DNA from: Sphingorhabdus sp. | GTDB taxonomy: Bacteria; Pseudomonadota; Alphaproteobacteria; Sphingomonadales; Sphingomonadaceae | Direction of reading: 5' to 3' | Length of the DNA: 64,000 nt | Assembly (NCBI GenBank): GCA_051657985.1 | Contig: JBOFLS010000083.1 | Span: 1,358 to 65,357, forward strand | Position numbers and translations under genes: made by a program | The notes under the pieces: model-generated | What the model saw: the letters and a program-made list of their open reading frames with translations, nothing else | Database searches by the model: none | Told to the model about the DNA's origin: nothing | Shown here: piece by piece, positions 43,526 to 61,923 of the stretch | Numbering within the stretch: position 1 is the stretch's first letter | Layout: each line of letters starts with the position of its first letter

Positions 43526-43526
43526 A

Positions 43527-45391: not shown

Positions 45392-45397
45392 GCTGCG

Positions 45398-45417
45398 AAA
45401 GTTGTCCGGACAAATTT
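45398..45417. promoter_or_regulatory. Palindromic operator, copy 1
   Basis: aaagTTGTCCGGACAAattt in the 84-bp divergent promoter region between the hydrolase and isochorismatase operons. Confidence 0.8.
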
Positions 45418-45475
45418 TGCTCGACAAGCCTGTACGTCCAAGTCAAAAGCGATGCAAGCTATGGAAGGAAAATTA

Positions 45476-46156
45476 ATGAACGTCGTCGGTACCAAAATGG
45501 TCAGCGATGGAAAGACCGCCAGGCAGATATTCGAGGAAGTGATAGCCAATCCGGCGCGCAAAAAGTTCGGGTTCGGAGAAAAACTGGCGATCATCAATGT
45601 CGATTTCCAGCAGGCCTATACGCGGACGGACATGTTCGTGACCGCCTATGAAACCGATCCGCGGCAGATCGAATATGCCAATAGCATCTCCCGATTGGCG
45701 CGGGCAAAAGGCATGCCGGTAGTCTGGACTCGTGTTGCTTATATGGACAATGCGGATGACGCCGGTGTTTGGGGAACGCGCACCAATATGCCCGATAGCC
45801 TGCAGAATATCAAATACGGGTCCGACCGCCATGCTTATGATCCGCGATGCGAGATCGATGCGAACGATCTGCAATATACCAAACGCATGCCGAGCGCGTT
45901 TTTCGAAACGCAGTTGGCGAGCTATCTGGTTTGGCACAAGGTCGATACCGTCGTGGTGACCGGTGGCAGCACGTCGGGCTGCGTTCGTGCAACCGCAGTG
46001 GATGCTCTCTCGCATGGCTATCGCACGATTGTGCCGATCGAAACCTGCGCAGACAAGCATGAGAGCTACCATTTCGCCAATCTGACCGACCTGCAGTTAA
46101 AATATGCCGATGTCGAACCGGTGCAAGCAGTGATCGACTGGCTGGAGGCGCGCTGA
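45476..46156 (+). CDS. Isochorismatase-family cysteine amidohydrolase (NicF / N-carbamoylsarcosine amidase-like)
   Basis: Asp-Lys-Cys triad in INVDFQ, YTKRMPSAF and GSTSGCVRAT. Start ATG 45476 with GGAAGGA RBS. Confidence 0.88.
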   Translation: MNVVGTKMVSDGKTARQIFEEVIANPARKKFGFGEKLAIINVDFQQAYTRTDMFVTAYETDPRQIEYANSISRLARAKGMPVVWTRVAYMDNADDAGVWGTRTNMPDSLQNIKYGSDRHAYDPRCEIDANDLQYTKRMPSAFFETQLASYLVWHKVDTVVVTGGSTSGCVRATAVDALSHGYRTIVPIETCADKHESYHFANLTDLQLKYADVEPVQAVIDWLEAR

Positions 46157-47031
46157 TGCAGGAGCGCAGCGCCGACCCCGGACTATATGATTATTCTTCC
46201 TATCGTGGTCGCAAGAAAATCACTTGGCCAGGCGGAAAGGCTGTTGCTGTCTGGATTGCGCCAAATCTGGAATATTATGAAATCAATCCCCCCGCGCATC
46301 CCAAGCGAAAGGCCTGGGGGCGTCCGCATCCCGATGTCGTAGGTTGGTCGCATCGCGATCATTCGAACCGGGTTTCGCATTGGCGGATGGCCGATGTTAT
46401 GACCAGGCATGGCTTTCCGGGATCGGTTTCGCTTTCGGTCGCGCTTTGCCAACATCATCCAGAAGTGGTTGCCGATGCCGATGCCCGTGGCTGGGAATTC
46501 TTCAGTCATGGTATCTATAATACGCGTTATGCTTATGATATGTCGGAGGAACAGGAGCGGTCGATTATTGAAGATTCGATCGCAACGGTGCGTGAATGCA
46601 CCGGCCAGACAATCCGTGGCTGGCTTGCCCCCGCGCTGACGCACACCCCGCGCACGCTCGATCTGATCGCTGAATATGGTCTCGATTATACCTGCGATCT
46701 GTATCATGACGATCAAGTGCAGTCGGTAAAGACCAAGTCGGGCGAGCTGGTTTCGATCCCCTACAGTCTGGAAGTCAACGACCACTACGGCTTCTTCGTC
46801 TACAACATGTCGGGCCGCGAATATGCCGACACGCTGATCCGGCAATTCGAACGACTGGCAACCGAGGGTGAGGCTTCGGGCACGGTCATGTGCATCCCGC
46901 TGCATGCCTATCTTATCGGGCAGCCGCACCGCATCGGCCCGTTCGAGCAGGCCCTGAAGCATATCGCCGCCGATGGTCGTGCCTGGATTGCGACGGCAGG
47001 GCAAATCGTCGATGCGTGGAAGGCACAGTAA
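46156..47031 (+). CDS. Polysaccharide-deacetylase-fold hydrolase 1 (PuuE-like)
   Basis: ITWPGGKAVAVW..PNLEY, RD.SNRV, SHG and RGWLAP motifs; IPYSLEVND; HAYLIGQPHRI. Confidence 0.82.
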   Translation: MQERSADPGLYDYSSYRGRKKITWPGGKAVAVWIAPNLEYYEINPPAHPKRKAWGRPHPDVVGWSHRDHSNRVSHWRMADVMTRHGFPGSVSLSVALCQHHPEVVADADARGWEFFSHGIYNTRYAYDMSEEQERSIIEDSIATVRECTGQTIRGWLAPALTHTPRTLDLIAEYGLDYTCDLYHDDQVQSVKTKSGELVSIPYSLEVNDHYGFFVYNMSGREYADTLIRQFERLATEGEASGTVMCIPLHAYLIGQPHRIGPFEQALKHIAADGRAWIATAGQIVDAWKAQ

Positions 47032-47936
47032 TGACGCTCGATCCCACCTATCTTCAATATTCCAACCGCCGCCATGGGTACGATCACGACCTGTTCGAAT
47101 GGACGGCAATCCACGATCGCAAACCCGTCGTCTGGCCCGGCGGGAAGTCGGTCGCAATATGGCTGTGCGTCAGTCTAGAATGGTTCCCTATCACTCCTAA
47201 CGATACACCCTTTCGCGCGCCGGGGCATATGCAGACCGCCTATCCCGATTATCGTCATTACACCGCACGCGATTATGGCAACCGGGTGGGTGTCTATCGG
47301 CTGCTCGATGCCTTCGCAAAAGTCGGAACCAAGGCAAGTTTCGCCACCAACAGCGCGATTGCGGAACGCTACCCTGCACTGATTGCCGACATTGTGCATG
47401 ACGGTCATGAAATTATCGCGCATTCGACCGATATGAACGGGACGATTGCGACCGGCATAGCTGTCGAGGAGGAGCGCAGGCTGATCGGCAGTTCGCTTGA
47501 CACATTTGAAAGTATAACGGGCAAGCGCCCCCAGGGCTGGTTGTCGATCGCCCGATCGCAAAGCTGGAATACGCCTGATCTGCTTAAAAAGGCCGGAGTG
47601 CGCTATTGCTGCGACTGGGTGAATGATGAACTGCCCTGGCGTTTCAAAAATGGCTTGATCAACCTGCCCTTGAACCACGAACTGAGCGATCGACAGATCA
47701 TCACCGTGCAGCAGCAATCGGCGGACAGCTATGCGCAATCGATGCGCGATGCGTTCGACTGGCTGGCCGGCGAAGCGACCGGTAGAATATTGCCGATGCA
47801 CCTGACGCCTTACATCATGGCCTTACCTTACCGTATCGATGCGCTTGAGGATTTGCTGGTGGATCTAGCCGGTCGTCAACAGGCTTGGGTCGCAACCGGG
47901 GCCGATATCGTCGATGCGTGGGAGGCGCAAATATGA
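47031..47936 (+). CDS. Polysaccharide-deacetylase-fold hydrolase 2 (PuuE-like paralogue)
   Basis: VVWPGGKSVAIW...SLEW, RDYGNRVG and GWLS motifs; LPLNHELSD; HLTPYIM..PYRI. The start ATG 47031 overlaps the upstream TAA. Confidence 0.82.
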   Translation: MTLDPTYLQYSNRRHGYDHDLFEWTAIHDRKPVVWPGGKSVAIWLCVSLEWFPITPNDTPFRAPGHMQTAYPDYRHYTARDYGNRVGVYRLLDAFAKVGTKASFATNSAIAERYPALIADIVHDGHEIIAHSTDMNGTIATGIAVEEERRLIGSSLDTFESITGKRPQGWLSIARSQSWNTPDLLKKAGVRYCCDWVNDELPWRFKNGLINLPLNHELSDRQIITVQQQSADSYAQSMRDAFDWLAGEATGRILPMHLTPYIMALPYRIDALEDLLVDLAGRQQAWVATGADIVDAWEAQI

Positions 47937-49354
47937 AGGTTCGAAACCCCCGTACCGGCGAATATGATTATGAAATCAAGCCTGCGGGTGCAGAGGATGT
48001 CGCGGCGACTGCACAGCGCCTGCGCGCTGCGCAACCCGCTTGGCAAAGCCTTGGTCCCCAAGGACGGGCCGATGTGCTTGAACGCTTTGCACAGGCGATC
48101 GAGCGTCATGCGCAGACGATCGTTGATTCGCTTACTATCGATACCGGCCGCCGGTCGGTGTCCTGGATCGAAGTCGAAGGGTTGCCGCGTACGATCCGCC
48201 GCTGGGCCGCGCGCGGGCAGGAGCTTATGAATGCGTTCGATGCGACCGAACGGCCATCGGCAACGCCGGGCATCATGCTTAAAGAGGAATACATTCCCTA
48301 TTCGCTGTTTGGAGCGATTGCGCCTTGGAACTTTCCGGTCATCCTTAGCCATATCGATGCCATTCCGGCATTGATGGCGGGCTGTGCGGCACTGGTAAAG
48401 CCAAGCGAGGTTACGCCGCGCTTCATTGCGCCGATGCGCGCCGCGCTTGCCGAGGTGCCCGAACTCGAGGCCGTCTTCGCCTATGTTGAGGGCGGTGCGG
48501 AAACCGGACAGGCGTTGATCGAAGCTGTCGATTATGTCTGCTTCACGGGTTCGACCGATACCGGGCGCAAGGTGGCCGAGGCTGCAGCTCGTGCATTGAT
48601 CCCCGCCAATCTGGAACTGGGCGGCAAAGATCCGATGATTATCCTTTCCAGTGCCGATCCTATCCAGGCCGCGCAAGTGGCTTTGCGGGCAAGCGTCGTT
48701 GCCACAGGCCAAGCCTGCCAGTCGATCGAGCGCATCTATGTGGCGCGCGAAATTGCTGCGCTATTTATGGACGCGCTGGTGCATGCCGCATCCGAAGTGC
48801 GTCTGACCTACCCCGATATCGGATCGGGCGATCTTGGGCCCTTTATCTTTGCAGCCCAAGCCGACAAGATTGCCGAGCAGTTGAACGACGCCGTCGCCAA
48901 GGGCGCACGCATTCTGACGGGCGGTAGTGTCGAAACACTTGGCGGCGGCAGATATCTACGCCCTACCGTCATCGTCGATGTAAAGCCCGACATGGCGTTG
49001 ATTGCCGAGGAGACATTCGGCCCGATCCTTCCGGTGACGATATTCGACAATGTCGACGAGGCTGTAATGCTGGCCAATGACAGTCGCTATGGCCTGTCTG
49101 CTGCGGTGCTGGCGGGAACGCTTGAAGAGGCGGAGGCGGTGGGCGTGCGCCTGGAAGCGGGTGCGGTATCGCTGAATGACGGCGCGCTGACCTCGATGGT
49201 ATGGGATGCAACCAACAGTTCGATGAAGGCATCGGGGTTAGGGCCTTCGCGGATGGGCGATGAGGGGATGCTGCGTTTCTTTCGGCGGCAGGCACTGATC
49301 AAGCAAACCGGACAGCCCCTGCCGCTCGCGGCCTATGCGGAAAGAGTGACATGA
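47933..49354 (+). CDS. Aldehyde dehydrogenase
   Basis: PWNFP, KPSE.TP, FTGST.TG, LELGGKDP, catalytic GQAC and EETFGP motifs. Start placed at ATG 47933. Confidence 0.93.
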   Translation: MKVRNPRTGEYDYEIKPAGAEDVAATAQRLRAAQPAWQSLGPQGRADVLERFAQAIERHAQTIVDSLTIDTGRRSVSWIEVEGLPRTIRRWAARGQELMNAFDATERPSATPGIMLKEEYIPYSLFGAIAPWNFPVILSHIDAIPALMAGCAALVKPSEVTPRFIAPMRAALAEVPELEAVFAYVEGGAETGQALIEAVDYVCFTGSTDTGRKVAEAAARALIPANLELGGKDPMIILSSADPIQAAQVALRASVVATGQACQSIERIYVAREIAALFMDALVHAASEVRLTYPDIGSGDLGPFIFAAQADKIAEQLNDAVAKGARILTGGSVETLGGGRYLRPTVIVDVKPDMALIAEETFGPILPVTIFDNVDEAVMLANDSRYGLSAAVLAGTLEEAEAVGVRLEAGAVSLNDGALTSMVWDATNSSMKASGLGPSRMGDEGMLRFFRRQALIKQTGQPLPLAAYAERVT

Positions 49355-49932
49355 AACCCTTCATAGCCTTCGTAGCTTTTGCGCTGGCAGCCTGTGCGAT
49401 CCCTGCCGAGCGCCCGCAGGTCGCCGTTTCTTCCCCTGGGGTTGAAAAGCCCGTCGAAAAACTGCCGACCGACATTCGCCGTGTTACGATGATCGTACGT
49501 AATATGGAGAACAGCCTTAAACTCTACCGCGATGTCATGGGACTGAAGGTCAATTATGATACCGTGCTGCCGATGTCGGGCGTTGCGCTTCCGGCTGGGG
49601 AGCCGGGCGCGAAGGCTCGGTTGGTATTATTGAACGGAAACGATCCCTTTATCGGCTGGATCGGCCTGATGGAATGGCTCGATCCGCGGCTGCCCGACCC
49701 CGGTCCCTACCCAAAACATATGGGAATAGGCGGGCATATCATTGTGACTCAGACCGACGATATCGACCGCCGCTGCGCCGAGGCGGCAAGGCTGCCCGGT
49801 ATTACCGTCACGGCTCTGCCACGCGATCAAAGCTATCCCGGGCGCAACGGCGCGCCGCCGATCAAGGTGCGCGGGTGCAACTTCTTCGATCCCGACGGTA
49901 CGCTGATCGAACTCAATCAATTGATCGGATGA
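49351..49932 (+). CDS. VOC / glyoxalase-superfamily protein with lipoprotein signal
   Basis: N-terminal lipobox LAAC; V..ME.SL..YRDV.GL and FFDPDGTLIELNQ VOC motifs. Confidence 0.8.
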   Translation: MKPFIAFVAFALAACAIPAERPQVAVSSPGVEKPVEKLPTDIRRVTMIVRNMENSLKLYRDVMGLKVNYDTVLPMSGVALPAGEPGAKARLVLLNGNDPFIGWIGLMEWLDPRLPDPGPYPKHMGIGGHIIVTQTDDIDRRCAEAARLPGITVTALPRDQSYPGRNGAPPIKVRGCNFFDPDGTLIELNQLIG

Positions 49933-49936
49933 AGGC

Positions 49937-50959
49937 ATGAAGGCTTACGGCATAGGACCGCAATCGGGTATCGAAGGGCTGCATCTCTTTGCAGCCGCCG
50001 AACCGGTGATCGAACCGGGCAAGATCGTCGTTCGCGTTACCGCTGCAGGGCTCAATTATCGCGATCTCATGCTATTGCGCGGGCAATATGGCGCGGCGCA
50101 ACCGGAAAAGCGGATACCCTTGTCCGATGGCGTCGGCATTGTCGAGGCAATCGGGGACGATGTAACAGGATTTCAAATTGGCGACCGCGTGATTGCCCCG
50201 CATTTTTTGGGTTGGGCTGATGGGCCGTTTTCGATGGCTGCCTTCGGCCAGGATATGGGCGTTACCGCCGATGGCTGGTTGGCTGAAAAAATCGCTTTTC
50301 CGGCGACCGCCGCGATCAAGCTTCCTGGCGCGATATCCGATGCCACCGCCGCTACATTGGCAGTCGCCGGTGCCACGGTATGGCATGCAATGGTCGCTTT
50401 CGGACAGGTGAAGCCAGGCGAATTGGTTCTGGCGCAGGGGACGGGGGGCGTGGCTATTTTCGCTCTGCTGCTCGCCAAGGCGCTTGGTGCTCGGTTTGCA
50501 ATCACGTCTTCGAGCGATGCGAAGCTTGAAAGATGCAAGGCCATGGGTGCGGACTTTGTCGGGAATTACCAAACGCAACCCGATTGGCCCTCGGCTCTAT
50601 TGGCGCAAACCGGGGGGCAGGGGGCTGATGTCATCATCGATACGCTCGGCTTTCCGGCATTCACCCAAACGATCCAGGCAGCGGCGGTTAATGGCCGGAT
50701 CGGCACTCTGGGGGCGCTTTCGGGTAGTCCACAGGATGCAGCCACGGGCAGCCAGGGTTTGATCATAGCAAAAAACTTGACAATTAAGGGCATTGCTTCG
50801 GGCAGTCGTGCGATGCTTCAGGCCGTTCTCGAGATTGTGGCGCGGCATGGCATCGAAATGCCCATCGATCGCGCATTCGATTTCTCCGATACGCCAGCCG
50901 CCTTTACCCATCTCAACAGCGGGACGCATTTGGGGAAAGTGTTAATTAGGATTAACTAG
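49937..50959 (+). CDS. MDR-family NAD(P)H oxidoreductase (zinc-independent, quinone-reductase-like)
   Basis: GLNYRD, IP.SDGVG.V, QGTGGVA.F and HLGKV motifs. Confidence 0.88.
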   Translation: MKAYGIGPQSGIEGLHLFAAAEPVIEPGKIVVRVTAAGLNYRDLMLLRGQYGAAQPEKRIPLSDGVGIVEAIGDDVTGFQIGDRVIAPHFLGWADGPFSMAAFGQDMGVTADGWLAEKIAFPATAAIKLPGAISDATAATLAVAGATVWHAMVAFGQVKPGELVLAQGTGGVAIFALLLAKALGARFAITSSSDAKLERCKAMGADFVGNYQTQPDWPSALLAQTGGQGADVIIDTLGFPAFTQTIQAAAVNGRIGTLGALSGSPQDAATGSQGLIIAKNLTIKGIASGSRAMLQAVLEIVARHGIEMPIDRAFDFSDTPAAFTHLNSGTHLGKVLIRIN

Positions 50960-51675
50960 CGCTTTAGCTCGACCAGTTCATACCAGGTCATCATATAACC
51001 GCCCACTCCGCCTTTTAGGAAAATGGCGTCTTCATCATTGGTAATCCACAGGTCATAGGGTGGATGCGCGCCTGCCATGCCTGCGCTACCATCGTCAACG
51101 AACTGGAAATGCCGCGCATTGAAAGTACCTGCTTGAACGGTTACTTCCTCCTGGCCTAGAAAGATGCCGTCGATCTTCACTTGCGCGATCATCGGTGGGG
51201 TCGCGCCGCGATGGTCGGGGCTGGGAAGGTAGCAATTGAACTTGTGCCGCTCGCCCTCATGGCTCCAGCGATGCATGCCCAGCATATAGCCATCGGCTAC
51301 GATCGGGTGCGTACCGAAACCGTCCAGAGGAAGTTCCGCCTCCACGCGCTGCGAAAGCCGGCCGATCGATGGACCGAAGCTTTCGCATTCGATCGTCTGG
51401 CCATCGAAGCGCAGCCAACCCGATCCCATAAAAGCATCGCCGACGGTCAAACGCACATGCAGATCTATGGGTTGGCCATGCTCGTCCAGGCTATAGATGA
51501 CGTCTCGCATAACGGTAGGTGCCGGTTCTTCGATCTCGCAATGCGCACGCAGAGTGACCTTGCCGTCGCTATGGCGGGTGAACAGGAAAGTTTCAAAACC
51601 GCGTGGTTCATCGAGGCGTTCGGGCTTTTTCGAGGTGTAGGCGATCCGGCCTTCGATGCTGCGATGCTGCATCAC
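50956..51675 (-). CDS. Hypothetical beta-rich protein
   Basis: 239 aa, coupled to the upstream gene by ATGA overlap. No family recognised. Confidence 0.7.
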   Translation of the reverse strand: MMQHRSIEGRIAYTSKKPERLDEPRGFETFLFTRHSDGKVTLRAHCEIEEPAPTVMRDVIYSLDEHGQPIDLHVRLTVGDAFMGSGWLRFDGQTIECESFGPSIGRLSQRVEAELPLDGFGTHPIVADGYMLGMHRWSHEGERHKFNCYLPSPDHRGATPPMIAQVKIDGIFLGQEEVTVQAGTFNARHFQFVDDGSAGMAGAHPPYDLWITNDEDAIFLKGGVGGYMMTWYELVELKR

Positions 51676-52034
51676 ATTTCCCGCAATGTTTTTGAAAGCT
51701 CCTCGACACTAGGCTCGGCCAATTCCTCCAGCGCTTCCATATCCTGCTGCACGCCGCGCATGATGCGGGCGATATATTCGCGGGTTTGCATCCCACGTTC
51801 GTTCCCCGCTGCGCGATCGGGCGTATAGGCTTCGATATCGGCACGGCTGATCGTACCTTTGGCTTCAAGCAATCGTTCGATGGTATCGAGCCGTTCGCGC
51901 AGCACCGAAACCTCACCGGCCAGGGCCATTACGATAGAAAGCGTACGATCGATCGCCGGATCGTCGAAATAGTGTGGCCGCTTGCCTTTGGCTTTGGCCC
52001 CGGCGCGAGCGATCCAGTCTATGTCATCGTTCAT
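51672..52034 (-). CDS. Small hypothetical helical/coiled-coil protein
   Basis: 120 aa, coupled on both sides; heptad segment LAGEVSVLRERLDTIERLL. Confidence 0.7.
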   Translation of the reverse strand: MNDDIDWIARAGAKAKGKRPHYFDDPAIDRTLSIVMALAGEVSVLRERLDTIERLLEAKGTISRADIEAYTPDRAAGNERGMQTREYIARIMRGVQQDMEALEELAEPSVEELSKTLREM

Positions 52035-53233
52035 GCAGCCGGTTTCCAGGCGCCATAGGCGTTCCAGCTAGCGGCGCGACCATGGTCTTCGCCTTCGCCC
52101 TGGCGCTGTTTGGGGAACACGGTTTCGTCGACCACCGCGGTTACTCCGGTTACGAACTGGCAATCGTGCGGCAGACCCTTTTCGGCCATTATGCCCTTGA
52201 GGTCGAGCGCATGCATAGACGACCAGAAGGGTTCGTTGTTGTTGAACGCATCCCAATCGCGGATGAACTGCTCGTAAAGTGGCATCGCGTCGGAATATTG
52301 CGGCTGTTCCAGATGCAGCATCAGCCCACCGGGCGCAAGTATGCGCGCGCTTTCCCCGATGATACGGGGAAGCGCGGAACCGGATAGCTCGTGCAGATAC
52401 ATCGTCGTTTGCACCCAATCGAAGCTTTCATCCTCGAACGCGTTCATATCCTCGGCATTCATCTGGATAAATTTCAGGTTGTGCGCGCCAAGCGCCTGCG
52501 CGCGCGCATGACCGTAGCGAAGAGACGGGGCAGCGGTATCGATCGCGATCACTTCCGTATCCGGAAAGGCGAGCGCCAGCGGCACGACGTTATGGCCGAT
52601 CGTACAGCCAAGGTCGAGAATGCGCCGTGGCACCCAGCCGGGGCGCTCCTTTTTGATCCATTCGACCAGCGCTTGTCCCCCACCATCCGACAAAGCGCCA
52701 AGGCCGCCGCCGGTGGTTGCGAAGATGCCGCAGTCGTAATTCGCACCCGCAGAAACGTCGCCCGGACGTTCCTCGCCATGATAGCTGCCGGGCATGCAGT
52801 GAATGTCGATTGCTGCCTGATAGCGCGGCACCTGCACCGAGGGATCAAGCCGCAACGTATCGCGGCCCTCGTTATACTGCCGCGCCTTGGCATCGAGTTC
52901 GTCCAACTGGCGCAACACCATCGACCGACCGTTCTGCTGGCGCATTTCCATCGAGTTGCGCTTCAATGCCGACCAGAAGCGGTGCCAGGAATCCTTGTTC
53001 ATCGCATGACGGATCTCGAACCGGTCCTTGGGCTCGCGGCCCTGTTCTTTCATAAAAGTGGGCAGCACGCGTTTGTCATAGGCAAGCTTGTTTCCAGGGC
53101 CTAGCGCGGACGCCATATATTTGTTGAAGTTTGCCAGAAAATTGAACCGCGCCGCTTCGTCATGGCTGGGTGTGGGAAACACCGCATGGCGGGTGACGGC
53201 AGTGTAGGGTGGTGGGATTTCAGGCTTGCTCAT
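52031..53233 (-). CDS. Class I SAM-dependent methyltransferase-fold protein with N-terminal extension
   Basis: ILDLGCTIG motif I variant, IDTA, NAEDM..F.DESFD.V...MYLHE and LAPGG. Confidence 0.82.
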   Translation of the reverse strand: MSKPEIPPPYTAVTRHAVFPTPSHDEAARFNFLANFNKYMASALGPGNKLAYDKRVLPTFMKEQGREPKDRFEIRHAMNKDSWHRFWSALKRNSMEMRQQNGRSMVLRQLDELDAKARQYNEGRDTLRLDPSVQVPRYQAAIDIHCMPGSYHGEERPGDVSAGANYDCGIFATTGGGLGALSDGGGQALVEWIKKERPGWVPRRILDLGCTIGHNVVPLALAFPDTEVIAIDTAAPSLRYGHARAQALGAHNLKFIQMNAEDMNAFEDESFDWVQTTMYLHELSGSALPRIIGESARILAPGGLMLHLEQPQYSDAMPLYEQFIRDWDAFNNNEPFWSSMHALDLKGIMAEKGLPHDCQFVTGVTAVVDETVFPKQRQGEGEDHGRAASWNAYGAWKPAA

Positions 53234-54360
53234 ATCAGTCCATCCTTGGCCAAACGGGCAATGGTTTCTTCGCTGATACGCTTGAAATGGTCACGGCCAG
53301 GGGTTTTGACAACACCATTTTCAAGCAGGCTGTCGGCGTGTTGATGCGTATCCGCGGCATAGGTTGCGGCGAACAGGGCATTGCGCTGGCGGGACAATGT
53401 GTTCGTCATTCCAGGCTTGCGCCGAGCGGCGCGAAGAGCGGCCAGATCGAGATCGGCAAAAGCGGTAAACGTTTCGCCACTGTTCGACTGCGCAAGGATA
53501 TTGCCTTTCCAGTCGATCACCATCGAATTGCCGTCGGCAGACGCCTCGGGAAGCGGGGTGTCGGTAATGCCGGCGGTGTTGGCGGAGATGACATAAGCCA
53601 GATTTTCGAAGGCCCGAGCTCGCTTGGCGATCATTTTGGGGGTCGCCATCGGGGAACCGATTTCGGACGAGCTATGCACGAAAATTTCCGCACCGCGCAG
53701 TGCGTGCGCGCGGGCGATTTCCGGATAGAGAATTTCTTCTGACGCGATTGCCGCCAGATTGCCGATTTCGGTCCGCGCAACGGGAAACGCGCCGTCAAGA
53801 CCATAGATATCCAGATATTTCGACCAGACATCATGCGGTGTAGGCGCAAACATCGAGTTTAAACGGCGATAGCGCAGTACGACATTGCCGTTGGGTGCGA
53901 TAACGAAGCTTGCCTGAAAATAAAGGCCGGGGAAGTGGCGGTCGGCCTCGTAAGCGTTGCCGGCAAGGAACAGTTTTTGTTCCTGCGCGATTTGGCTCAG
54001 CGCTTCATATTCAGGGCCGTCGACTTCCAGCGCGGCCTTATCGGTGAATTCCGGTATCGAAATGGCTCCCGGATAGCTGGTAAGAATATATTCGGGCAAT
54101 ACGGCAAGGCGCACGCGTGTGCCGCTATATTGATTGATGAACTTGGTGGCCGCACGAATCTTGGGATCGAGTGCAGCAATGGTCTCCAGCATCTGCTTGC
54201 GCGCGGCAGCCTTATCGGGCGTTCGCTCGATCGAACGAGCGGCGAACTGCAACGCCACGGCAGCATAGTTTTTTGGATCAGCCATTCCTTGTGCCCCTAC
54301 CGGCAGGGGCAGTGCGCCTGCCATTATTACTGCCAAAGCATCCCGTCTTCTCATCTTCAT
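53230..54360 (-). CDS. Nitrilase/CN-hydrolase-fold protein with variant triad and possible Tat signal
   Basis: VLPEY (Glu), YRRL where YRK is expected, IASEEILYPE where ICYD/E..FPE is expected, and N-terminal RRRDAL...VGA. Confidence 0.8.
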   Translation of the reverse strand: MKMRRRDALAVIMAGALPLPVGAQGMADPKNYAAVALQFAARSIERTPDKAAARKQMLETIAALDPKIRAATKFINQYSGTRVRLAVLPEYILTSYPGAISIPEFTDKAALEVDGPEYEALSQIAQEQKLFLAGNAYEADRHFPGLYFQASFVIAPNGNVVLRYRRLNSMFAPTPHDVWSKYLDIYGLDGAFPVARTEIGNLAAIASEEILYPEIARAHALRGAEIFVHSSSEIGSPMATPKMIAKRARAFENLAYVISANTAGITDTPLPEASADGNSMVIDWKGNILAQSNSGETFTAFADLDLAALRAARRKPGMTNTLSRQRNALFAATYAADTHQHADSLLENGVVKTPGRDHFKRISEETIARLAKDGLI

Positions 54361-54371
54361 CGGTCATGCCT

Positions 54372-55916
54372 CTATAGACCCAGCGCGCCAGGGTTCATCA
54401 AGCCCCTGGGGTCGATATTCGCTTTGACCGCCTGCAAAATTTGCCAGCCGCGCGGATCGCTGCGTTCCTTGATTGGATAGGTGCGGCCCAGCTGAAAATG
54501 AATGCCGTCCATGCGTCCGAAAATAGCAATCACTTCGCGCCGCAATTTTTCGACCAGCGCACGCGCCGCTTCGTTGCGCGGGTGGATCGGCAGCTTTTTG
54601 AAATGTGCATCCTCGATGAAATGCTTGTGAATTTCCCACTGCTCGTCGGGCCAGTAAAAGCAGGGCTCGATCAGGAAGCCGGTAGTACCGACCACAAGGA
54701 ACATATAGCCTGCGCCCACCCCTAACCGCTCCATTTCGGCAGCGTTCGTTTCAAACAAGGCGGTCAGTGTGTCGATCGTTTCCAACGCTTTGGAATGACG
54801 GACGATGCCATGTACCGGTGCCCAGCGTTCGCCTTCGGGGCCAGCCATCGAATTGGGCGGGAGGAAGGGGTTGGCACGCAATATTTTGGGAATGGTGTTT
54901 TCCACGATGCGTCCGCCATTCGCGGCAACGATCGCCTCGACTGCGGCCATATCGGCATCGACAGCGGCTTGAGATCGGCCTTCGCAGATCAGATGGATCG
55001 AAAAGGCGCAATCATCAAGGAAGGAACGACCGGCAGCGACCACCTTTGCCCCCTCCTTCAATCCTTTCCAGAACCCGCCTTGCGACTTGACCATATTGAC
55101 CAGCGATTTCGTATCGGAAACCAGACTGTCGCGCTTCATCCGTTGCGCTTGCAGGAATGGATCGAACCCGAAGGCTTCGGATGCCAGTCCGCGCCGTCCG
55201 ATCTCGCTCATCGCGGCGCAATATTGCTTGGGTGCATCGAAGGCGAAGCTGCCATAAGCGAAAGCTTCGCCATCATGGATCAGGGGCAGGGTAATCGTTG
55301 CTTTTACCCCAAATGCGCCGGCATCTGCGCCGAAAAGGCCCGTCAGGTCGGGGCCAAAGGGACGTAAAAAATCGCTTCCGGTTTTGACGATCGAACCGTT
55401 AGCGAGTACGATTTCAGCGCAGATGATGTTCGGGGCGATCGTGCCGTCGCGTCCGCCCCAGAACAAACCGTTCTGGCTCATTCCGCCTCCGATGCTGGCA
55501 TAGAGGCCCGAAAGCGTGCCCCATAGAGGCGTGCGCAATCCCTTGGGACGGAGCGCTTCGTAAAGCGCATGCCAGGTGCAGCCCGCTTCGACGGTAGCCG
55601 TCATATCGACCATATTGATATCGAGAATGCGCTGCATCCGCCCCATATCGACAATCAGAGCACCTGCCTCAGGAGCAACATAGCCGCTCGTATAGCTCAT
55701 CCCGCCACCGCGCGGTACGATCGCGATTCCGGCTGCGGTCGCTAGGCCGATGCCATGGGCCAGTTCTTCCTTGTTTCCCGGCCGGAACACCGCAATCGGC
55801 GCAGGACCTTTGGTGAAGATATCCTGTGCATAAAGCGCACATTGCGCCGGATCGGTGATCAACGCCTCGGTTGCAATGCCGTTCAACGGGTGATCGGTTC
55901 GAAGCTGCGTTGCCAT
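54372..55916 (-). CDS. FAD-binding oxidoreductase (VAO/PCMH, GlcD-like)
   Basis: P.AVFRP, VPRGGG.S...G, V.AG, ASIGG and DLTGLF..G.FGV motifs. Confidence 0.88.
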   Translation of the reverse strand: MATQLRTDHPLNGIATEALITDPAQCALYAQDIFTKGPAPIAVFRPGNKEELAHGIGLATAAGIAIVPRGGGMSYTSGYVAPEAGALIVDMGRMQRILDINMVDMTATVEAGCTWHALYEALRPKGLRTPLWGTLSGLYASIGGGMSQNGLFWGGRDGTIAPNIICAEIVLANGSIVKTGSDFLRPFGPDLTGLFGADAGAFGVKATITLPLIHDGEAFAYGSFAFDAPKQYCAAMSEIGRRGLASEAFGFDPFLQAQRMKRDSLVSDTKSLVNMVKSQGGFWKGLKEGAKVVAAGRSFLDDCAFSIHLICEGRSQAAVDADMAAVEAIVAANGGRIVENTIPKILRANPFLPPNSMAGPEGERWAPVHGIVRHSKALETIDTLTALFETNAAEMERLGVGAGYMFLVVGTTGFLIEPCFYWPDEQWEIHKHFIEDAHFKKLPIHPRNEAARALVEKLRREVIAIFGRMDGIHFQLGRTYPIKERSDPRGWQILQAVKANIDPRGLMNPGALGL

Positions 55917-55919
55917 GTT

Positions 55920-57173
55920 TCAAGCCTTTTGCTGATCGGGATAGCGCCCAAGCGCCAACAACATTGCCCCCCCAATCACGAACATCGCTGCTGCCGCCAT
56001 CAGCATGCCGTCATAGCTGCCCGTGTTTACACGAACCGTACCGTAAATGACCGGCGAGATTGCCGACATCAGTCCGAAAGGCATGTACAGCATACCGTAT
56101 ATCCGCCCGAAATGCGCCATGCCGAAATAGCGTGCAGCCAAGAATGCAATGAGGTCGCTTTCCGCACCCGCCGCAAAACCCAAGAAAAAAGCGGCGGTGG
56201 AGATGGCGGGCATTGCACTATCGGTACCAAGCAATAGATAGCATGCGACCGCGGGCAAGCACAGCACGGGAAAGGCAATTGCCGGGCCCCAGACCTTGTC
56301 AAGCATGTAGCCAACACCAATACGGCCGCAAAGCAGGCCGATGCCAACAATCCCCATGATTCTGGCGGCAGTGTCCCGATCAATGCCATGATCGCCGACG
56401 ATTGCGGGTAAGTGGATATGGGCGCCGCCATAGGCGCTGGCGATCAAAAAGATCGAGAACCATAACACCCAGAACTGGCGGGTCCTTACCGCCTGCTTGA
56501 AAGTCATCCCCGCCAGCTCGCCAGTCATGGTAGAAAGCGCGGCAGGCCGTTCGTCGGCGCGAGGTTCGCGAAAAAAGGCGATCGTCGCTGGTAAGGCAAT
56601 CAGCAGCGGCAGCAATGCCACAATCGGAAACATCGCCCGCCAACCGAAATTATCACTACTCCAAACGGCAAGGCTTGGAACGATAAAGGCAGCCGCACTC
56701 GTACCGACCAACATTATGCCCAATGCCAGTCCGCGCTGTCGTACGAACCACAGGCTTAGGCCTCTGCTCCATGTGACCGGAGTGGATCCGATACCGATCA
56801 TACCCACGAGCAGCCAAAGAAAATAAAAGCCAATCAAGGTGGGCGGGGTAAAATAAAGCGAGGAAAAGGCAAGAATGAAGCCGACGAGCGACCAGATACC
56901 CACTTTACGCACGCCATAACGATCCGCTAGCCAGCCGAAAAAAGGGGCAAGCAGCGATGCCGTAATGCCGAATACCGTTATACCGATGCTAACCTGTTGG
57001 ACGTTCCAACCATATTCGGCCTCAAGCGGCGTGAACAGGAAGCCCAGAACATTGAAAGGGAGGGGCGATGCACCGCACATCGTGCCCAAAAAACCGGCAA
57101 GCAAAACTTTCCAGCCGAGTTTAAATTCCGATTGCTGCGCGTTCAGAGCCTCTACACTTTTTGATGCTATCAT
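55920..57173 (-). CDS. MFS transporter
   Basis: About 12 hydrophobic segments; GWLADRYGVRK MFS motif A; GYMLDK in the second half. Confidence 0.9.
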   Translation of the reverse strand: MIASKSVEALNAQQSEFKLGWKVLLAGFLGTMCGASPLPFNVLGFLFTPLEAEYGWNVQQVSIGITVFGITASLLAPFFGWLADRYGVRKVGIWSLVGFILAFSSLYFTPPTLIGFYFLWLLVGMIGIGSTPVTWSRGLSLWFVRQRGLALGIMLVGTSAAAFIVPSLAVWSSDNFGWRAMFPIVALLPLLIALPATIAFFREPRADERPAALSTMTGELAGMTFKQAVRTRQFWVLWFSIFLIASAYGGAHIHLPAIVGDHGIDRDTAARIMGIVGIGLLCGRIGVGYMLDKVWGPAIAFPVLCLPAVACYLLLGTDSAMPAISTAAFFLGFAAGAESDLIAFLAARYFGMAHFGRIYGMLYMPFGLMSAISPVIYGTVRVNTGSYDGMLMAAAAMFVIGGAMLLALGRYPDQQKA

Positions 57174-57204
57174 ATGAGGTTAAAGCTTTCGCGCTATAAT
57201 GGGC

Positions 57205-57229
57205 AAAAAACGGGATCTTTCGACCCCGT
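57205..57229 (-). terminator. Rho-independent terminator after the TonB-dependent receptor gene
   Basis: Minus strand acggggtc-gaaa-gatcccgt followed by a T run. Confidence 0.7.
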
Positions 57230-57241
57230 CCAATTTACATA

Positions 57242-59749
57242 TCAGAATTTATATTTTGCCCTAACTGTCCATTCCATCGGTCGATTTAAATAGGAGTAAT
57301 TGGCCAATGTCGATTGTACGAAACTTTCGTTGAAGCAATTGGTACAATCGACTGAAAGCGACCATTTGTTATCGGGGCCTTTGAGTGCGAGGCCGGCGTT
57401 CACCAACCAAGCCGCCTCGCTGAAGGATCCGACAATGAACCGACCATTGTTCAGATTTGCGGGAAAAGTGCCATTTGTCCCGGTTACCGAACCGCTGTAG
57501 ATCGTAAGATTGCTGGTACCGGTTTCCTGATCCGATCGATAGGTGGCGTTAACCGACGGAACGATCGCCAAGTCATTGCCGATTTCTGCGCGATAACTTC
57601 CTCCGATGGCCAACGACCATTTAGGTGTACGCACTGGGGTCGAGATATTGCCTTGCGGATTGACAATTCCCTGTCCGCAAGATGCTGTTCCCGGACCTCC
57701 TGCGATATTCCCTGCAGCAAGAGCTGCACGACATTGAGCCTGTAGGCCCGCTGAAGTCGGAATTCCATAAATGTCGATAAGAGGAGCGCCATTTGGGATG
57801 ATATAGCGGTCATCTTGATAACCGACGTTGGCGTATAGATTCAGGCCATCGACTGGTTGAAAGCTCAGTTCCGCTTCGATCCCCTTGTTCCTGTAGTCGG
57901 CAAAATTCTGGGTAATGAATACCGGAGCACCGACCGGGGGAAGGAAAGCCGAAGGCGTTTGTAGATTTTTCACATCCATCCAGAAAAACGTCACATTTGC
58001 CCGAACCCGGCGATCGAAGAGATCGGACTTAATGCCGGCTTCATAAGACCAGACCTTTTCCGGCGCGAAAGGCGTCAGTAAGGTAGCTGAGGTTGCCCGT
58101 GCATTCCACCCGCCCGATTTGAACCCGCGCGTTGCCGAAGCAAAAAGCAGGACGTCTTCGTTGGGTTTGAAGTTGATCGCAAAACGCGGCGTCCATAATT
58201 TTGCGGTTTGCGAGCGAGGAATGGCTCGTCCGCTTGGAGAGACAAGCAAGCTATTGTCAAGACATGTGGCCTCAATGCTGCCATCGTTGCAGGAAGCCCG
58301 ATTATCTGCGATACTGAAAGTCTTCTTTTCATCAGTGTAACGAATACCCGCCGTCAGTTTGATCTGCTCTGTAATGTTGAAATCCGCTTGAGCATAGCCT
58401 GCAAGTGCTGTCGTTTTATTCCGAAGGATGCGATCTCCGAGCAACAATGAAAACCCGCCCGGCACAACCGTAAACGGAGGGAAGGGCAATGCGTTTAGCG
58501 AAAATATATCGGCAAAATCGGTGCGGTTGCGCTCATCCAGATAATAACCACCGGCTACGAAATCCACAAAACCATCGCCAAAACTTCCTGCAATTTTGAT
58601 TTCCTGTGAAAACTGCTCGTGCTGGCCATCGTTTAAGATGGTAAATCCGCCGCGTGTAAATCCGCGAACTACGGGATTTGGTGTGCTTATGCTTGGAGCG
58701 CCTCGACCATCAAAGAAGTCGAGCGCGAATTTTTGGCTCACATTGACATAGCCTGTAATGAGGCTGAGCGTTATGTCGCTTGAAAGGTCTATATCGAGAT
58801 TGGAGGTAATAAGGTCGGTTGCAGAACGGTTCCCTTGCAGATAATTCGCCTTTTCTCCGCGTATTACCAAAGGCGCATAAGTTGACGTTGATACCGTATT
58901 GCCAACCTGAAGGCCTGTTGTTGCAAACCGGCCCTTGCAATCATCGGAATCGGCTGGATTACAATCAAAATTCAGGATGTTTTCGCCATTGGCTTCAAGA
59001 TGCGCATAAGCTGCTTTCCAGCGAGCGCCGCCAAGATCGCCTGACAAGCCAAGCCGAACCCCCCAGCCATCATCGTCGTTCATACGCTGGCCTGTCGTGA
59101 CGTTTTTCACATATCCGTCATCGTTCTGCCAATAGCCACTAATTTTCGCCCCAAAACTGGGAGCCAGCGGGATATCAACCGATGCACGGGCAATCTTGCG
59201 ATCGTAGCGGCCATAACCGATCTCCGCATAGCCGCCGAAATCAGGGCCAGGTTCCCGCATGACCACGCTTACGGCACCGCCGGTTGTATTACGTCCGAAT
59301 AGCGTACCCTGGGGTCCACGCAAAACCTCTATGCGTTCGACATCGAACAGAGAAAGATTGTTCGCATTCTGGCGACTGAGATAGATATCATCTACATAAG
59401 TGCCCACCGGAGGATCAAAGGTCGCGATGGTCTCGGTATTGCCCAATCCTCTCAAAAAATAGGCATTAGCCGAGCCTATTCCGGTATTGTTCTGGGCTGT
59501 CATATTGGGAATAAACTGACCCAGCTGCAAAGCATTCGAAACACCCTGAGCCTCAAGCTGTTCAGACGAAAAAGCCGAAATCGCGATGGGTACATCTTGA
59601 ACATTTTCATTGCGGCGCTGCGCGGTAACGACGATTTCCTCGATCCCGCCCTGTTCGGCAGCATCATCGCCAGCGTCTTGAGCAAAGCTTGGAAAAGCAG
59701 TGATCATTACGGCAACCGCCGTTCCGCTTTTCAACATAGTGCGTAACAT
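57242..59749 (-). CDS. TonB-dependent receptor
   Basis: Signal peptide, TonB box EEIVVTAQRR, plug motif RIEVLRGPQGTLFGRNTTGGA, C-terminal aromatic strand ending YKF. Confidence 0.95.
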   Translation of the reverse strand: MLRTMLKSGTAVAVMITAFPSFAQDAGDDAAEQGGIEEIVVTAQRRNENVQDVPIAISAFSSEQLEAQGVSNALQLGQFIPNMTAQNNTGIGSANAYFLRGLGNTETIATFDPPVGTYVDDIYLSRQNANNLSLFDVERIEVLRGPQGTLFGRNTTGGAVSVVMREPGPDFGGYAEIGYGRYDRKIARASVDIPLAPSFGAKISGYWQNDDGYVKNVTTGQRMNDDDGWGVRLGLSGDLGGARWKAAYAHLEANGENILNFDCNPADSDDCKGRFATTGLQVGNTVSTSTYAPLVIRGEKANYLQGNRSATDLITSNLDIDLSSDITLSLITGYVNVSQKFALDFFDGRGAPSISTPNPVVRGFTRGGFTILNDGQHEQFSQEIKIAGSFGDGFVDFVAGGYYLDERNRTDFADIFSLNALPFPPFTVVPGGFSLLLGDRILRNKTTALAGYAQADFNITEQIKLTAGIRYTDEKKTFSIADNRASCNDGSIEATCLDNSLLVSPSGRAIPRSQTAKLWTPRFAINFKPNEDVLLFASATRGFKSGGWNARATSATLLTPFAPEKVWSYEAGIKSDLFDRRVRANVTFFWMDVKNLQTPSAFLPPVGAPVFITQNFADYRNKGIEAELSFQPVDGLNLYANVGYQDDRYIIPNGAPLIDIYGIPTSAGLQAQCRAALAAGNIAGGPGTASCGQGIVNPQGNISTPVRTPKWSLAIGGSYRAEIGNDLAIVPSVNATYRSDQETGTSNLTIYSGSVTGTNGTFPANLNNGRFIVGSFSEAAWLVNAGLALKGPDNKWSLSVDCTNCFNESFVQSTLANYSYLNRPMEWTVRAKYKF

Positions 59750-59798
59750 TCACATCCTCCTCTGAAAAACTTAATCTTGCTCAACCCCGCAATTTATG

Positions 59799-59816
59799 AT
59801 TTGTCCGGACAACTTT
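59799..59816. promoter_or_regulatory. Palindromic operator, copy 2
   Basis: atTTGTCCGGACAActtt in the divergent region between the receptor and the membrane protein. Its reverse complement is identical over 18 nt to 45398-45415. Confidence 0.8.
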
Positions 59817-59862
59817 GATGGATTCGATGCGTCTGTCAAGCATGTAAAAATACGGGGGTGCC

Positions 59863-60543
59863 ATGGTTCTAGCCGATTATGCCTATCCGACGCTAGTGTA
59901 TGTTCATCTGCTTCTGTTCGTGTTGTGGCTGGGTGCCGACGTCGGAGTGTTCTTGCTCGGCCAGCATTTTCGCAAGCGTCATGTCTATTCTCTCGACCAA
60001 CGTATTGCACTGCTGAAACTGCTTGTGATCGTCGATCTGACGCCGCGTACCGCCTGGGCGCTCATGGTGCCGCTTTCGTTGACCGTCAGTTCTATGGGCG
60101 GCTGGTGGGAGGTTCCCGCTTTGCTGGTCTGGGGATCTTGGGCAGTGGCCGCTTTTTGGCTTTGGCTCGTCTTCGATGCGCATGCGCACGACATGACCCC
60201 ACGGGCCGCACGCGATCGGCGGTGGGAAGGTTGGCTGCGTTATCTGTTGTGCGCTGCCTATTTATGGCTGGGGCTGCAGTCGGTGCTGACCGGTAACCCG
60301 ATCGCCCCTGGATGGCTGGCATGGAAGGCGCTGCTCTTTGGACTGATCTTTGCTGCAGCGATCATGATCGATGTGACGTTCAAGCCCGTAGGTGCGCAGC
60401 TTGGCCGCTTGCTCTCCGAGGGATCATCCGACGAAACCGAAATTCCGCTTTTGCAGACAATGAATCGTACGCGGCTGTGGGTCTGGTGCGTCTACGCACT
60501 ACTGGTTGCCACCTCTTGGCTCGGCGTAGTGAAACCTACATGA
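59863..60543 (+). CDS. Hypothetical integral membrane protein
   Basis: 226 aa, about 5-6 hydrophobic segments, His in the first helix (VHLLLFVLWLG). No family recognised. Confidence 0.75.
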   Translation: MVLADYAYPTLVYVHLLLFVLWLGADVGVFLLGQHFRKRHVYSLDQRIALLKLLVIVDLTPRTAWALMVPLSLTVSSMGGWWEVPALLVWGSWAVAAFWLWLVFDAHAHDMTPRAARDRRWEGWLRYLLCAAYLWLGLQSVLTGNPIAPGWLAWKALLFGLIFAAAIMIDVTFKPVGAQLGRLLSEGSSDETEIPLLQTMNRTRLWVWCVYALLVATSWLGVVKPT

Positions 60544-60560
60544 AACAAAAAAGGCTTGAC

Positions 60561-60582
60561 TAAAGTTGTCCGGACAACTTTA
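60561..60582. promoter_or_regulatory. Palindromic operator, copy 3 (perfect 22-mer) abutting a -35-like hexamer
   Basis: TAAAGTTGTCCGGACAACTTTA, starting at the last base of TTGACT (60556-60561), 18 nt upstream of the CitE-like start. Confidence 0.85.
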
Positions 60583-60600
60583 CAGAAAGTCGTGATCGCA

Positions 60601-61410
60601 ATGCAATCCATACTCTTCGTTCCCGGCAATCGGCCGGAGCGTTTCGCTAAAGCGTTGGCAAGCGGGGCGGATTGCGTATGCATCGATCTGGAAGATGCGG
60701 TTCCCGCTGCCAATAAGGCGAGTGCAAGGGATGCAGCGCTTGCCGCCATTACCGATGATGCGCGTCTGGCGCTTCGGATCAACGCCGTCTCAACCCGTGC
60801 CGGACTAGCCGATATTCTTGCCCTTACCGAGACTGGAAAGCGACCGTCGCTGCTGTTCCTGCCAATGGTCGAAGCCGCTGCCGAGGTCGCAATCGTACGT
60901 TCGCTGCTTGCCGATGCGGACATAGGTTTCGTACCGCTGATTGAAACCGTCGCAGGGCTGCGCAACGCCGATGCGATCGCGGCGGAGCCTAATGTAGCAT
61001 CGATCATGCTGGGTGGGGCGGATTTTTCGGCACAGCTCGGCGTCACGCTAAGTTGGGAACCCTTGTTATTTGCGCGAAGTCAATTGGTGATGGCGGCGGC
61101 CGGCGCGGGGAAATCGGTAATCGATGTGCCGTATATCCATCTCGATGACGAAGCCGGGCTGATCGAAGAGGCGCAGAAAGCAAAGGCGCTTGGTTTTTCG
61201 GCAAAGGCTGCAATTCATCCTGCACAGATTGCACCAATCCATTCGGTTTTCCGTCCGATTGCCAGCGAAATTGCCGAAGCCAAGGAAGCAGAGGATGCTT
61301 TTGCCTCGGCAAATGGTGCCGCGGTGCGTTTCAGAGGCCGGATGCTCGAAGCGCCCGTGATGGCACGCTATCGACAGATACTTTCTTTGAAGGACAGGAT
61401 AGATGCGTGA
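60601..61410 (+). CDS. CitE/HpcH-family acyl-CoA lyase (citryl/citramalyl/malyl-CoA lyase-like)
   Basis: SILFVPG, DLEDAV, LRIN, LIET..GL, G.ADF and AIHPAQI motifs. Start placed at ATG 60601. Confidence 0.9.
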   Translation: MQSILFVPGNRPERFAKALASGADCVCIDLEDAVPAANKASARDAALAAITDDARLALRINAVSTRAGLADILALTETGKRPSLLFLPMVEAAAEVAIVRSLLADADIGFVPLIETVAGLRNADAIAAEPNVASIMLGGADFSAQLGVTLSWEPLLFARSQLVMAAAGAGKSVIDVPYIHLDDEAGLIEEAQKAKALGFSAKAAIHPAQIAPIHSVFRPIASEIAEAKEAEDAFASANGAAVRFRGRMLEAPVMARYRQILSLKDRIDA

Positions 61411-61912: not shown

Positions 61913-61923
61913 GGAGCTCCGAT

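Follow-up and report, generated by a model that had tools for sequence, protein, structure and literature searches.

A palindrome at the promoters of a catabolic island in Sphingorhabdus sp. as the candidate operator of a GntR/HutC-type repressor

The HutC subfamily of GntR regulators is separated from the FadR, MocR and YtrA subfamilies by the UTRA effector domain, which has a chorismate-lyase fold. NagR (YvoA) of Bacillus subtilis and DasR of Streptomyces coelicolor combine a GntR winged helix-turn-helix with UTRA, and their dre operator is a 16-bp palindrome in which GT and AC are 4 nt apart; the sites overlap promoters, and the repression is relieved by a ligand. HutC itself, the histidine-utilisation repressor, and PhnF repress catabolic operons locally, and in both cases a pathway intermediate serves as the inducer; their operators and regulons differ from those described below. 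Here we consider 64,000 nucleotides from Sphingorhabdus sp. (assembly GCA_051657985.1, contig JBOFLS010000083.1, positions 1,358 to 65,357; this whole stretch is the window in what follows), where three copies of the 12-mer palindrome TTGTCCGGACAA lie at the promoters of a catabolic island. The extended consensus of 98 unique sites, AAKTTGTCCGGACAAMTT, is probably the operator of a dimeric GntR/HutC regulator of 241 aa that represses the island promoters until an effector binds.

The general form of HutC operators is NyGTMTAKACNy, with GT and AC 4 nt apart (PMC4494728). In TTGTCCGGACAA, which reads GT-CCGG-AC, C at M and G at K fit this form, and the core GTCCGGAC departs from it only at the centre, with CG for TA. 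We take the dre operator to be AGTGGTCTAGACCACT, and AGTTGTCCGGACAACT agrees with it at 12 of 16 positions.

A literature search for the 12-mer gave MscA (Ms5630) of Mycolicibacterium smegmatis as the sole relevant match. The promoter bound by MscA has TTGTCCGGACAA as its main box (box2), according to electrophoretic mobility shift assays and lacZ fusions with box deletions (PMC11711680), and MSMEG_5630 is listed as a HutC-subfamily protein of 245 aa (PMC2018728). Hence a protein of the same subfamily has the identical 12-mer as its binding box. However, MscA is actinobacterial, is reported to activate an 'antioxidant' cluster and to be inactivated by Cu2+ oxidation, and its promoter has a second, different box; the likeness to the sphingomonad protein is by operator and subfamily only.

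In gene content, operon E of the island resembles the itaconate clusters (RipABC of Yersinia; Ict, Ich and Ccl of Pseudomonas): a lyase like RipC/Ccl (224 bits) and a hydratase like RipB/Ich (239 bits) are encoded there together with class III CoA-transferases and an acyl-CoA dehydrogenase. However, both scores fall short of the equivalog cut-offs (375 for RipC and 340 for RipB), the module is a part of an island of about 30 genes, and the known itaconate clusters are controlled by LysR-type regulators, not by HutC-type ones. A literature search on itaconate, GntR regulators and sphingomonads brought up no published regulator of this cluster.

The candidate operators are as follows:

Operator 1: 45398..45417, core 45402–45413, AAAGTTGTCCGGACAAATTT, 36.0 bits; gap between the divergent genes of a two-domain alpha/beta-hydrolase (abh459) and an isochorismatase-like hydrolase
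Operator 2: 59798..59815, core 59801–59812, GATTTGTCCGGACAACTT, 31.6 bits; gap between the divergent genes of a TonB-dependent receptor and the membrane protein u226
Operator 3: 60561..60582, core 60566–60577, 34.9 bits; between u226 and a CitE-like gene
Extra operator: C247:12216 (contig C247), AATTTGTCCAGACAAATT; between the genes of a second TonB receptor and a DUF1330 protein; from a matrix scan
Extra operator: C247:8375; upstream of a DUF1838 gene; from a matrix scan

Exact matches to TTGTCCGGACAA are present, as reported by the first-pass annotation of this DNA, at the three cores and nowhere else in the window. All are in short intergenic gaps: 84 bp between abh459 (ATG at 45391, minus strand) and the isochorismatase gene (ATG at 45476, plus strand), 113 bp between the TonB receptor gene (start at 59749, minus strand) and u226 (start at 59863, plus strand), and 57 bp between u226 (stop at 60543) and the CitE-like gene (ATG at 60601). 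The symmetry noted there is also read directly in the sequence: the 18-mer AAAGTTGTCCGGACAAAT of copy 1 recurs in copy 2 on the opposite strand, and copy 3 (60561–60582, TAAAGTTGTCCGGACAACTTTA) is a perfect 22-bp palindrome (an example of a core-mutated version of this 22-mer is TTCTCCGGAGAA). The expectation from shuffled windows is 0.01 copies, with three or more matches in none of 100 shuffles, and the three additional matches that appear in the window when up to two mismatches are allowed are within the chance range.

The whole draft genome (3,475,656 bases in 282 contigs) contains the same three exact copies only, about 0.2 being predicted from base composition. A 22-nt matrix was built on 19 sites of the genus and applied to the genome with the threshold of 12 bits. 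It yielded five matches, all on the single joined island scaffold and none elsewhere; the two outside the window are degenerate copies, both on C247 of the same island. Repetitive extragenic palindromes (REP) and mobile repeats have many dispersed copies regardless of gene function, whereas here three exact and two degenerate copies are confined to one island in 3.48 Mb. Thus the genome scan speaks against a generic repeat.

The sites are conserved in relatives. In three other genomes of the genus (G011, G018 and G024) the 12-mer is found at the same promoters, that is, abh459/deacetylase, CitE, TonB receptor, major facilitator superfamily (MFS) transporter and u239/u226. Operator 1 stands at the equivalent promoter in all three, and operator 2 is kept in G018 and G024. 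The phylogenetic footprint suggested as a check by the first-pass annotation is clear: the 12-mer core is 100% identical, while the ungapped flanks are 23–43% identical.

The annotation had placed the regulator outside the window, with a GntR/FadR gene expected just past nucleotide 64,000. Contig C83, on which the window lies (G000:C83:1358-65357, G000 being the genome in question), ends 168 nt past the window. The draft contigs overlap by exactly 139 nt, yielding a unique chain rcC69 – C83 – rcC59 – rcC133 – rcC247 – rcC57 – C136 of about 110 kb, in which the island runs on for more than 17 kb past the window. The CoA-transferase reading frame is continuous through the C83/rcC59 joint (421 aa), and the second CoA-transferase has 360 aa. 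The joins are supported by the same order of genes, CitE, MaoC, acyl-CoA dehydrogenase, two CoA-transferases, regulator and PrpD-like genes, in the single-contig genome G011, in G024 and in Sphingorhabdus contaminans KCTC 32445. The chain contains the following gene:

GntR/HutC regulator gene: C59:53-778, equivalent to window positions 65382–66107, minus strand; 241 aa, some 1.4 kb past the end of the window and convergent to the CitE operon

The N-terminus of the protein is a GntR winged helix-turn-helix (PF00392, residues 7–68, E-value 7.1e-17, 61.3 bits with the cut-off 27), and the C-terminus is a UTRA effector domain (PF07702, residues 94–231, E-value 4.6e-17, 62.6 bits with the cut-off 23.8). 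Hence the expected GntR gene is at its place, but the domain composition assigns it to the HutC subfamily rather than to FadR. The nearest solved structures are those of NagR/YvoA (2wv0/4u0v, 3e-15) and DasR (3e-8), and full-length alignments to NagR and 2ra5 were obtained. The best NCBIfam matches are HutC (TIGR02018, 85 bits, cut-off 220) and PhnF (TIGR02325, 81 bits, cut-off 157), and by these scores the protein represents an unnamed branch of the HutC subfamily.

Among the island genes scanned with Pfam, both in the window and on the joined contigs, there is no other recognisable regulator or DNA-binding domain, and within the window the island genes include none for a helix-turn-helix protein according to Pfam and NCBIfam. 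Three other candidates for the role of the regulator were rejected. An OmpR-type response regulator (33864–34556) adjoins the pst genes and is outside the island; a gene of about 310 aa between two operators beside CitE in G011 and G024 encodes a secreted DUF1838 protein; and a LysR-type gene in G024 (L025:5029-5898) is not conserved in other islands.

The regulator and the palindrome can be compared residue by base with the NagR–DNA structure, where Arg48 reads G at −4, Arg38 reads G at −5 and the wing residue Gly69 reads G at −7 (PMC4333415). In the alignment with NagR, Arg42 and Gly63 of the regulator correspond to Arg48 and Gly69, and both are invariant in seven homologues; in the operator, G at −4 is invariant, and −7 is G or T. 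At the position of Arg38 the regulator has Ser32, and the operator has T, not G, at −5. An arginine at this helix-turn-helix position prefers G/C and avoids A/T, and the residue following the recognition arginine correlates with the central operator bases (PMC4494728); at the latter position NagR has Met, and the sphingomonad regulator has Phe or Tyr. Thus, apart from the overall identity of only about 25–30%, the differences from NagR and DasR are Ser for Arg38, T for G at −5, the CG centre for TA, and Phe for Met. The regulon differs as well, comprising CoA-dependent organic-acid/amide catabolism and TonB uptake instead of amino-sugar use, with no autoregulation in this genus.

The regulator and the sites travel together. 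Regulator orthologues with at least 55% identity are present in only five of 37 genomes of the genus, our genome included (G000, G011, G017, G018 and G024), and these contain 3, 4, 1, 6 and 7 copies of the motif, respectively. The other 32 genomes have 0–2 copies, those checked being inside coding sequence; 24 of the 36 genomes other than G000 have none. At larger distances, the scan of GTDB species genomes produced at least 594 loci related to the regulator, of which the best 80 were used (54–76% identity, mostly Sphingomonadales). Within 10 kb of the regulator genes in these loci (1.33 Mb in total) we observed 151 matrix sites and 126 exact 12-mers, compared to zero in the reversed-sequence controls; nearly all of the 18 loci lacking a site are contigs too short to reach the CitE promoter. 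In these order-wide loci, a site within 250 nt upstream of the gene was found for CitE (62 of 63), the TonB-dependent receptor (29 of 29), u226 (49 of 49), DUF1838 (19 of 20), abh459 (5 of 5) and the isochorismatase (5 of 5, at 68–78 nt). The PrpD-like genes provide an internal negative, with a site in 0 of 77 cases, and in our genome neither the PrpD-like operon next to the regulator nor the regulator gene itself has a site; hence the MmgE/PrpD operon seems to be outside the regulon despite its position.

Of all sites, 56% are intergenic, compared to 12% of bases. Naive calls of open reading frames (ORFs) put 55 of the 126 sites inside long ORFs and were not used as evidence beyond this enrichment; these 55 cases are probably an artefact of extended or wrong-strand ORFs, similar to the TTG-extended abh459 ORF in the window. 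In two genomes from other families, G058 and G050, the gene of a homologue with only 33–34% identity is itself immediately preceded by a site, and the remaining copies precede homologues of LeuC, u239, the TonB-dependent receptor/u226 pair and the HMG-CoA lyase/CoA-transferase pair. The proposal that one GntR-type regulator controls both divergent operon pairs and the CitE operon is supported by the sites and by the co-occurrence, but the regulon is larger than was supposed, with at least two operators outside the window (C247:12216 and C247:8375).

Some loci deserve a separate mention. In L113, L115, L116, L117, L121, L122, L129 and L130, mostly of the Erythrobacter type, operators at the CitE and u226 promoters are paired at 39–42 bp, about four helical turns, and this spacing suggests cooperative or tetrameric binding in these lineages; G000, unlike them, has single sites only. 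In the metagenome-assembled genome P01_A01_bin.136 (L120) the regulator orthologue is present, while the genes of CoA-transferase b, LeuC and HMG-CoA lyase are truncated, CitE is absent, and there is no operator in 20 kb: this island looks decayed. The gammaproteobacterium Steroidobacter agaridevorans SA29-B (L131, NZ_BLJO01000003.1) has the whole block of the regulator (54% identity), two CoA-transferases, acyl-CoA dehydrogenase, MaoC, CitE, TonB receptor and MFS genes with two operators, which suggests horizontal transfer of the regulator and the operators together. Finally, four loci from another family of the order (L003–L006; G038, G060, G054 and G047) contain one extended palindrome each at about position 1501, for instance AAAAATTTGTCCGGACAACTTTT, beside phaA-, phaB- and phaC-like genes; the closest GntR homologue in these loci has only 30–32% identity and is about 30 kb away.

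The direction of control may be judged from the positions of the sites relative to the promoters. The first-pass annotation noted a TTGAC(T/A) hexamer near each copy, and all three are present: TTGACT at 60556–60561 (plus strand), TTGACT at 45446–45441 (minus strand) and TTGACA at 59839–59834 (minus strand). The second one is rejected as the hexamer of operator 1, being unconserved in relatives, whereas TTGTCG at 8 nt from the core is conserved. The resulting −35-like elements are:

TTGACT, CitE promoter: 60556..60561, plus strand; the operator fills the 17-nt spacer, the hexamer is kept in G018 and G024
TTGACA, TonB-receptor promoter: 59834..59839, minus strand; the core starts 21 nt further downstream and covers the −10 region
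TTGTCG, abh459 side: 45422..45427, minus strand; 8 nt upstream of operator 1, conserved in relatives

At the receptor promoter, the same hexamer and spacing are observed in G018, and on the receptor side operator 2 in G018 and G024 is preceded by TTGACA or TTGCAT at 20–21 nt from the core. At the CitE operator, TTGACT is 4–6 nt upstream of the core in G000, G018 and G024. At the abh459 hexamer, the alignment reads cTTGTCgag in G000 and G018 and TTGTCT in G024, and only TCGAG is retained in G011. The centre of the operator is 13.5–16.5 nt before the conserved abh459 ATG in all five genomes (16.5 nt in the window), hence the site would cover the −10 region or +1 wherever transcription starts; at CitE in G000 the distance is 29.5 nt. 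The ATG codons of abh459 and CitE follow the operator cores at 10 and 23 nt, respectively, and there is no recognisable Shine–Dalgarno sequence in these intervals (45389–45401 and 60578–60603), hence leaderless or very short-leader mRNAs are predicted. For abh459, a near-leaderless mRNA is also what the conserved TTGTCG at 8 nt upstream of the core would predict. Judged by these distances, the sites at abh459, CitE and the TonB receptor, over the spacer, the −10 region or the predicted start, fit the geometry of a repressor, as originally claimed, while the u226 site may be situated upstream of the promoter.

The sites, their uniqueness and conservation, the regulator gene with its domains and its co-occurrence with the sites are observed directly; from these data we infer that the protein binds the palindrome, that it represses and does not activate, and what kind of effector it has. 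In the proposed scheme, the effector-free dimer would occupy the five operators of this genome, operators 1–3 and the two sites on C247. They would lie over the −35/−10 spacer, the −10 element or the start of transcription, and a dimer bound there would block the access of RNA polymerase to the abh459 and isochorismatase operons, the operon of the TonB receptor and the MFS transporter, u226 and the CitE operon, and also, outside the window, to DUF1838 and to the second TonB receptor with DUF1330. Binding of a small molecule from the pathway to the UTRA domain would then release the protein.

Several observations weigh against this scheme. The scan of both promoter regions with the E. coli-type sigma-70 consensus found no full or canonical promoter, hence the promoter status rests on the −35-like hexamers, distances to start codons and conservation in relatives. 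The regulator falls short of all named equivalogs (HutC, PhnF, Rv0792c/MoyR, TreR), its NCBIfam scores being 59–85 bits against cut-offs of 157–400. Its gene has an upstream site in one of 82 orthologues and in none from this genus; as there is no own operator, what links it to the palindrome is its proximity, operator 3 being about 5 kb away in G000 with a similar arrangement in about 60 loci, and the co-occurrence, both of which are confounded with the presence of the whole island. The contig joins, in turn, are deduced from the 139-nt overlaps and synteny. Finally, MscA, the only experimentally studied HutC protein with this 12-mer, is reported to be an activator: it binds a promoter with the identical 12-mer and raises expression (PMC11711680, PMC2018728). 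If the same applied here, the GntR/HutC protein would bind the palindromes as an activator or a dual regulator; the poor match of the promoters to the sigma-70 consensus, often seen in activator-dependent promoters, and the possible upstream position of the u226 site would both agree with that. Still, we consider this option improbable, as the distances from the operator centre to the abh459 start in five of five genomes and to the CitE start in G000 imply overlap with the −10 region or the start, and characterised HutC proteins (NagR, DasR, HutC, PhnF, TreR) are repressors (PMC4333415, PMC4918961).

It is also unlikely that the palindrome is recognised by a different protein, encoded elsewhere or by one of the island genes u120, u239 and u162, with the GntR/HutC regulator controlling something else. 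This would account for the regulator gene having no adjacent operator in this genus and for the palindromes near the phaA/phaB-like genes of the other family, some 30 kb from a diverged GntR homologue, and the co-occurrence cannot separate the regulator from other genes of the island; moreover, given that u120, u239 and u162 lack a confident family, DNA binding by them is formally conceivable. On the other hand, Pfam detects no helix-turn-helix domain in these three proteins at E ≤0.1, both the spacing GT-N4-AC and the correspondence of residues to bases, compared with NagR, are consistent with a HutC protein (PMC4494728, PMC4333415), the homologue in G058 and G050 has the site directly upstream, and a global factor is unlikely as the genome has no site outside the island. 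We give hardly any credence to the palindrome not being a protein site at all, but a repeat element (a remnant of REP or of a miniature inverted-repeat transposable element), a restriction/modification target, or a hairpin terminator or attenuator. A perfect inverted repeat could in principle form an 8-bp stem with the CCGG loop; however, the would-be loop is invariant, whereas the ±7 pair is non-complementary in 65 of 98 unique sites. This lack of covariation rules out the hairpin and points to two protein half-sites. Further, the element works in both orientations and is located upstream of start codons rather than after genes, with no T-tract following, and five copies, all at promoters of one island, are too few for a repeat. 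We therefore retain the operator of a GntR/HutC repressor as the preferred explanation.

The genes behind the operators were assigned to families by Pfam and NCBIfam profile scans of the island proteins:

Operon A: 39503..45391, minus strand, behind operator 1; two-domain alpha/beta-hydrolase (abh459), u162, LeuC-like, LeuD-like, HMG-CoA-lyase-like, CoA-transferase III
Operon B: 45476..50959, plus strand, behind operator 1; isochorismatase-like hydrolase, two PuuE-like deacetylases, aldehyde dehydrogenase, VOC/glyoxalase, Zn-dehydrogenase
Operon C: 50956..59749, minus strand, behind operator 2; TonB-dependent receptor, MFS transporter, FAD oxidase, nitrilase-fold protein, S-adenosylmethionine (SAM) methyltransferase, u120, u239
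u226: 59863..60543, plus strand, between operators 2 and 3; membrane protein without a family match
Operon E: 60601..64000, plus strand, behind operator 3; CitE/RipC-like lyase, MaoC/RipB-like hydratase, acyl-CoA dehydrogenase, CoA-transferase b (cut by the window end)

The gene order of operon A is kept in G011, G018 and G024, and operon C is syntenic with relatives. The u226 homologues in many genomes are flanked by two sites about 760–790 bp apart. Beyond the window, operon E continues with the second CoA-transferase, followed by the convergent regulator gene. The latter is separated by only about 30 bp from a divergent operon (window-equivalent 66140–71212, rcC133) that encodes two MmgE/PrpD proteins, a PaaK-like ligase and an amidase. 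The joined island past the window also encodes VOC proteins, DUF1330, the second TonB receptor and DUF1838, as well as enoyl-CoA hydratase-like and quinone oxidoreductase-like proteins, the last two assigned by eye only. Three proteins of the window are conserved in relatives and have no confident family: u239 and u120 (50956–52034) have no Pfam match at E ≤0.1, and u162 (43527–44015) has only a sub-threshold match to DUF3598_N (E-value 0.01, 16.7 bits with the cut-off 22).

The switch itself is of an ordinary kind, a local GntR/HutC repressor with palindromic operators over promoters; compared with the NagR/DasR kind, the central and −5 bases of the operator are different, the branch of the protein is unnamed, and literature searches yielded no description of the regulon. 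The operators may outline a coherent, horizontally mobile regulon of about 30 genes for an undescribed catabolic pathway, conserved across the Sphingomonadales and transferred at least once to a gammaproteobacterium (Steroidobacter), a reading we advance tentatively. Jointly with it, and with the same reserve, the island could be seen as combining TonB-dependent uptake, several amide- or imide-type hydrolases and two stereochemically complementary CoA-lyase modules, one HMG-CoA-lyase-like with LeuCD-like proteins and the other CitE/MaoC-like.

The invariant 12-mer marks transcription units that belong together in a large order-wide island with several proteins lacking a family. The regulator is a handle on the island substrate, by ligand screening or a reporter on the 22-bp operator, and there are carriers in culture: Sphingorhabdus contaminans KCTC 32445, Sphingobium jiangsuense DSM 26189, Sphingomonas cavernae K2R01-6, Sandarakinorhabdus cyanobacteriorum TH057 and Steroidobacter agaridevorans SA29-B. 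If the operators do outline such a regulon, the ligand of the HutC-type regulator would name the pathway substrate. For GntR specificity in general, Ser in place of the NagR Arg together with T in place of the dre G is a residue-to-base data point, and the Ser/Phe recognition pair reading T at −5 and the CG centre would be a new HutC specificity rule, possibly shared with the mycobacterial MscA.

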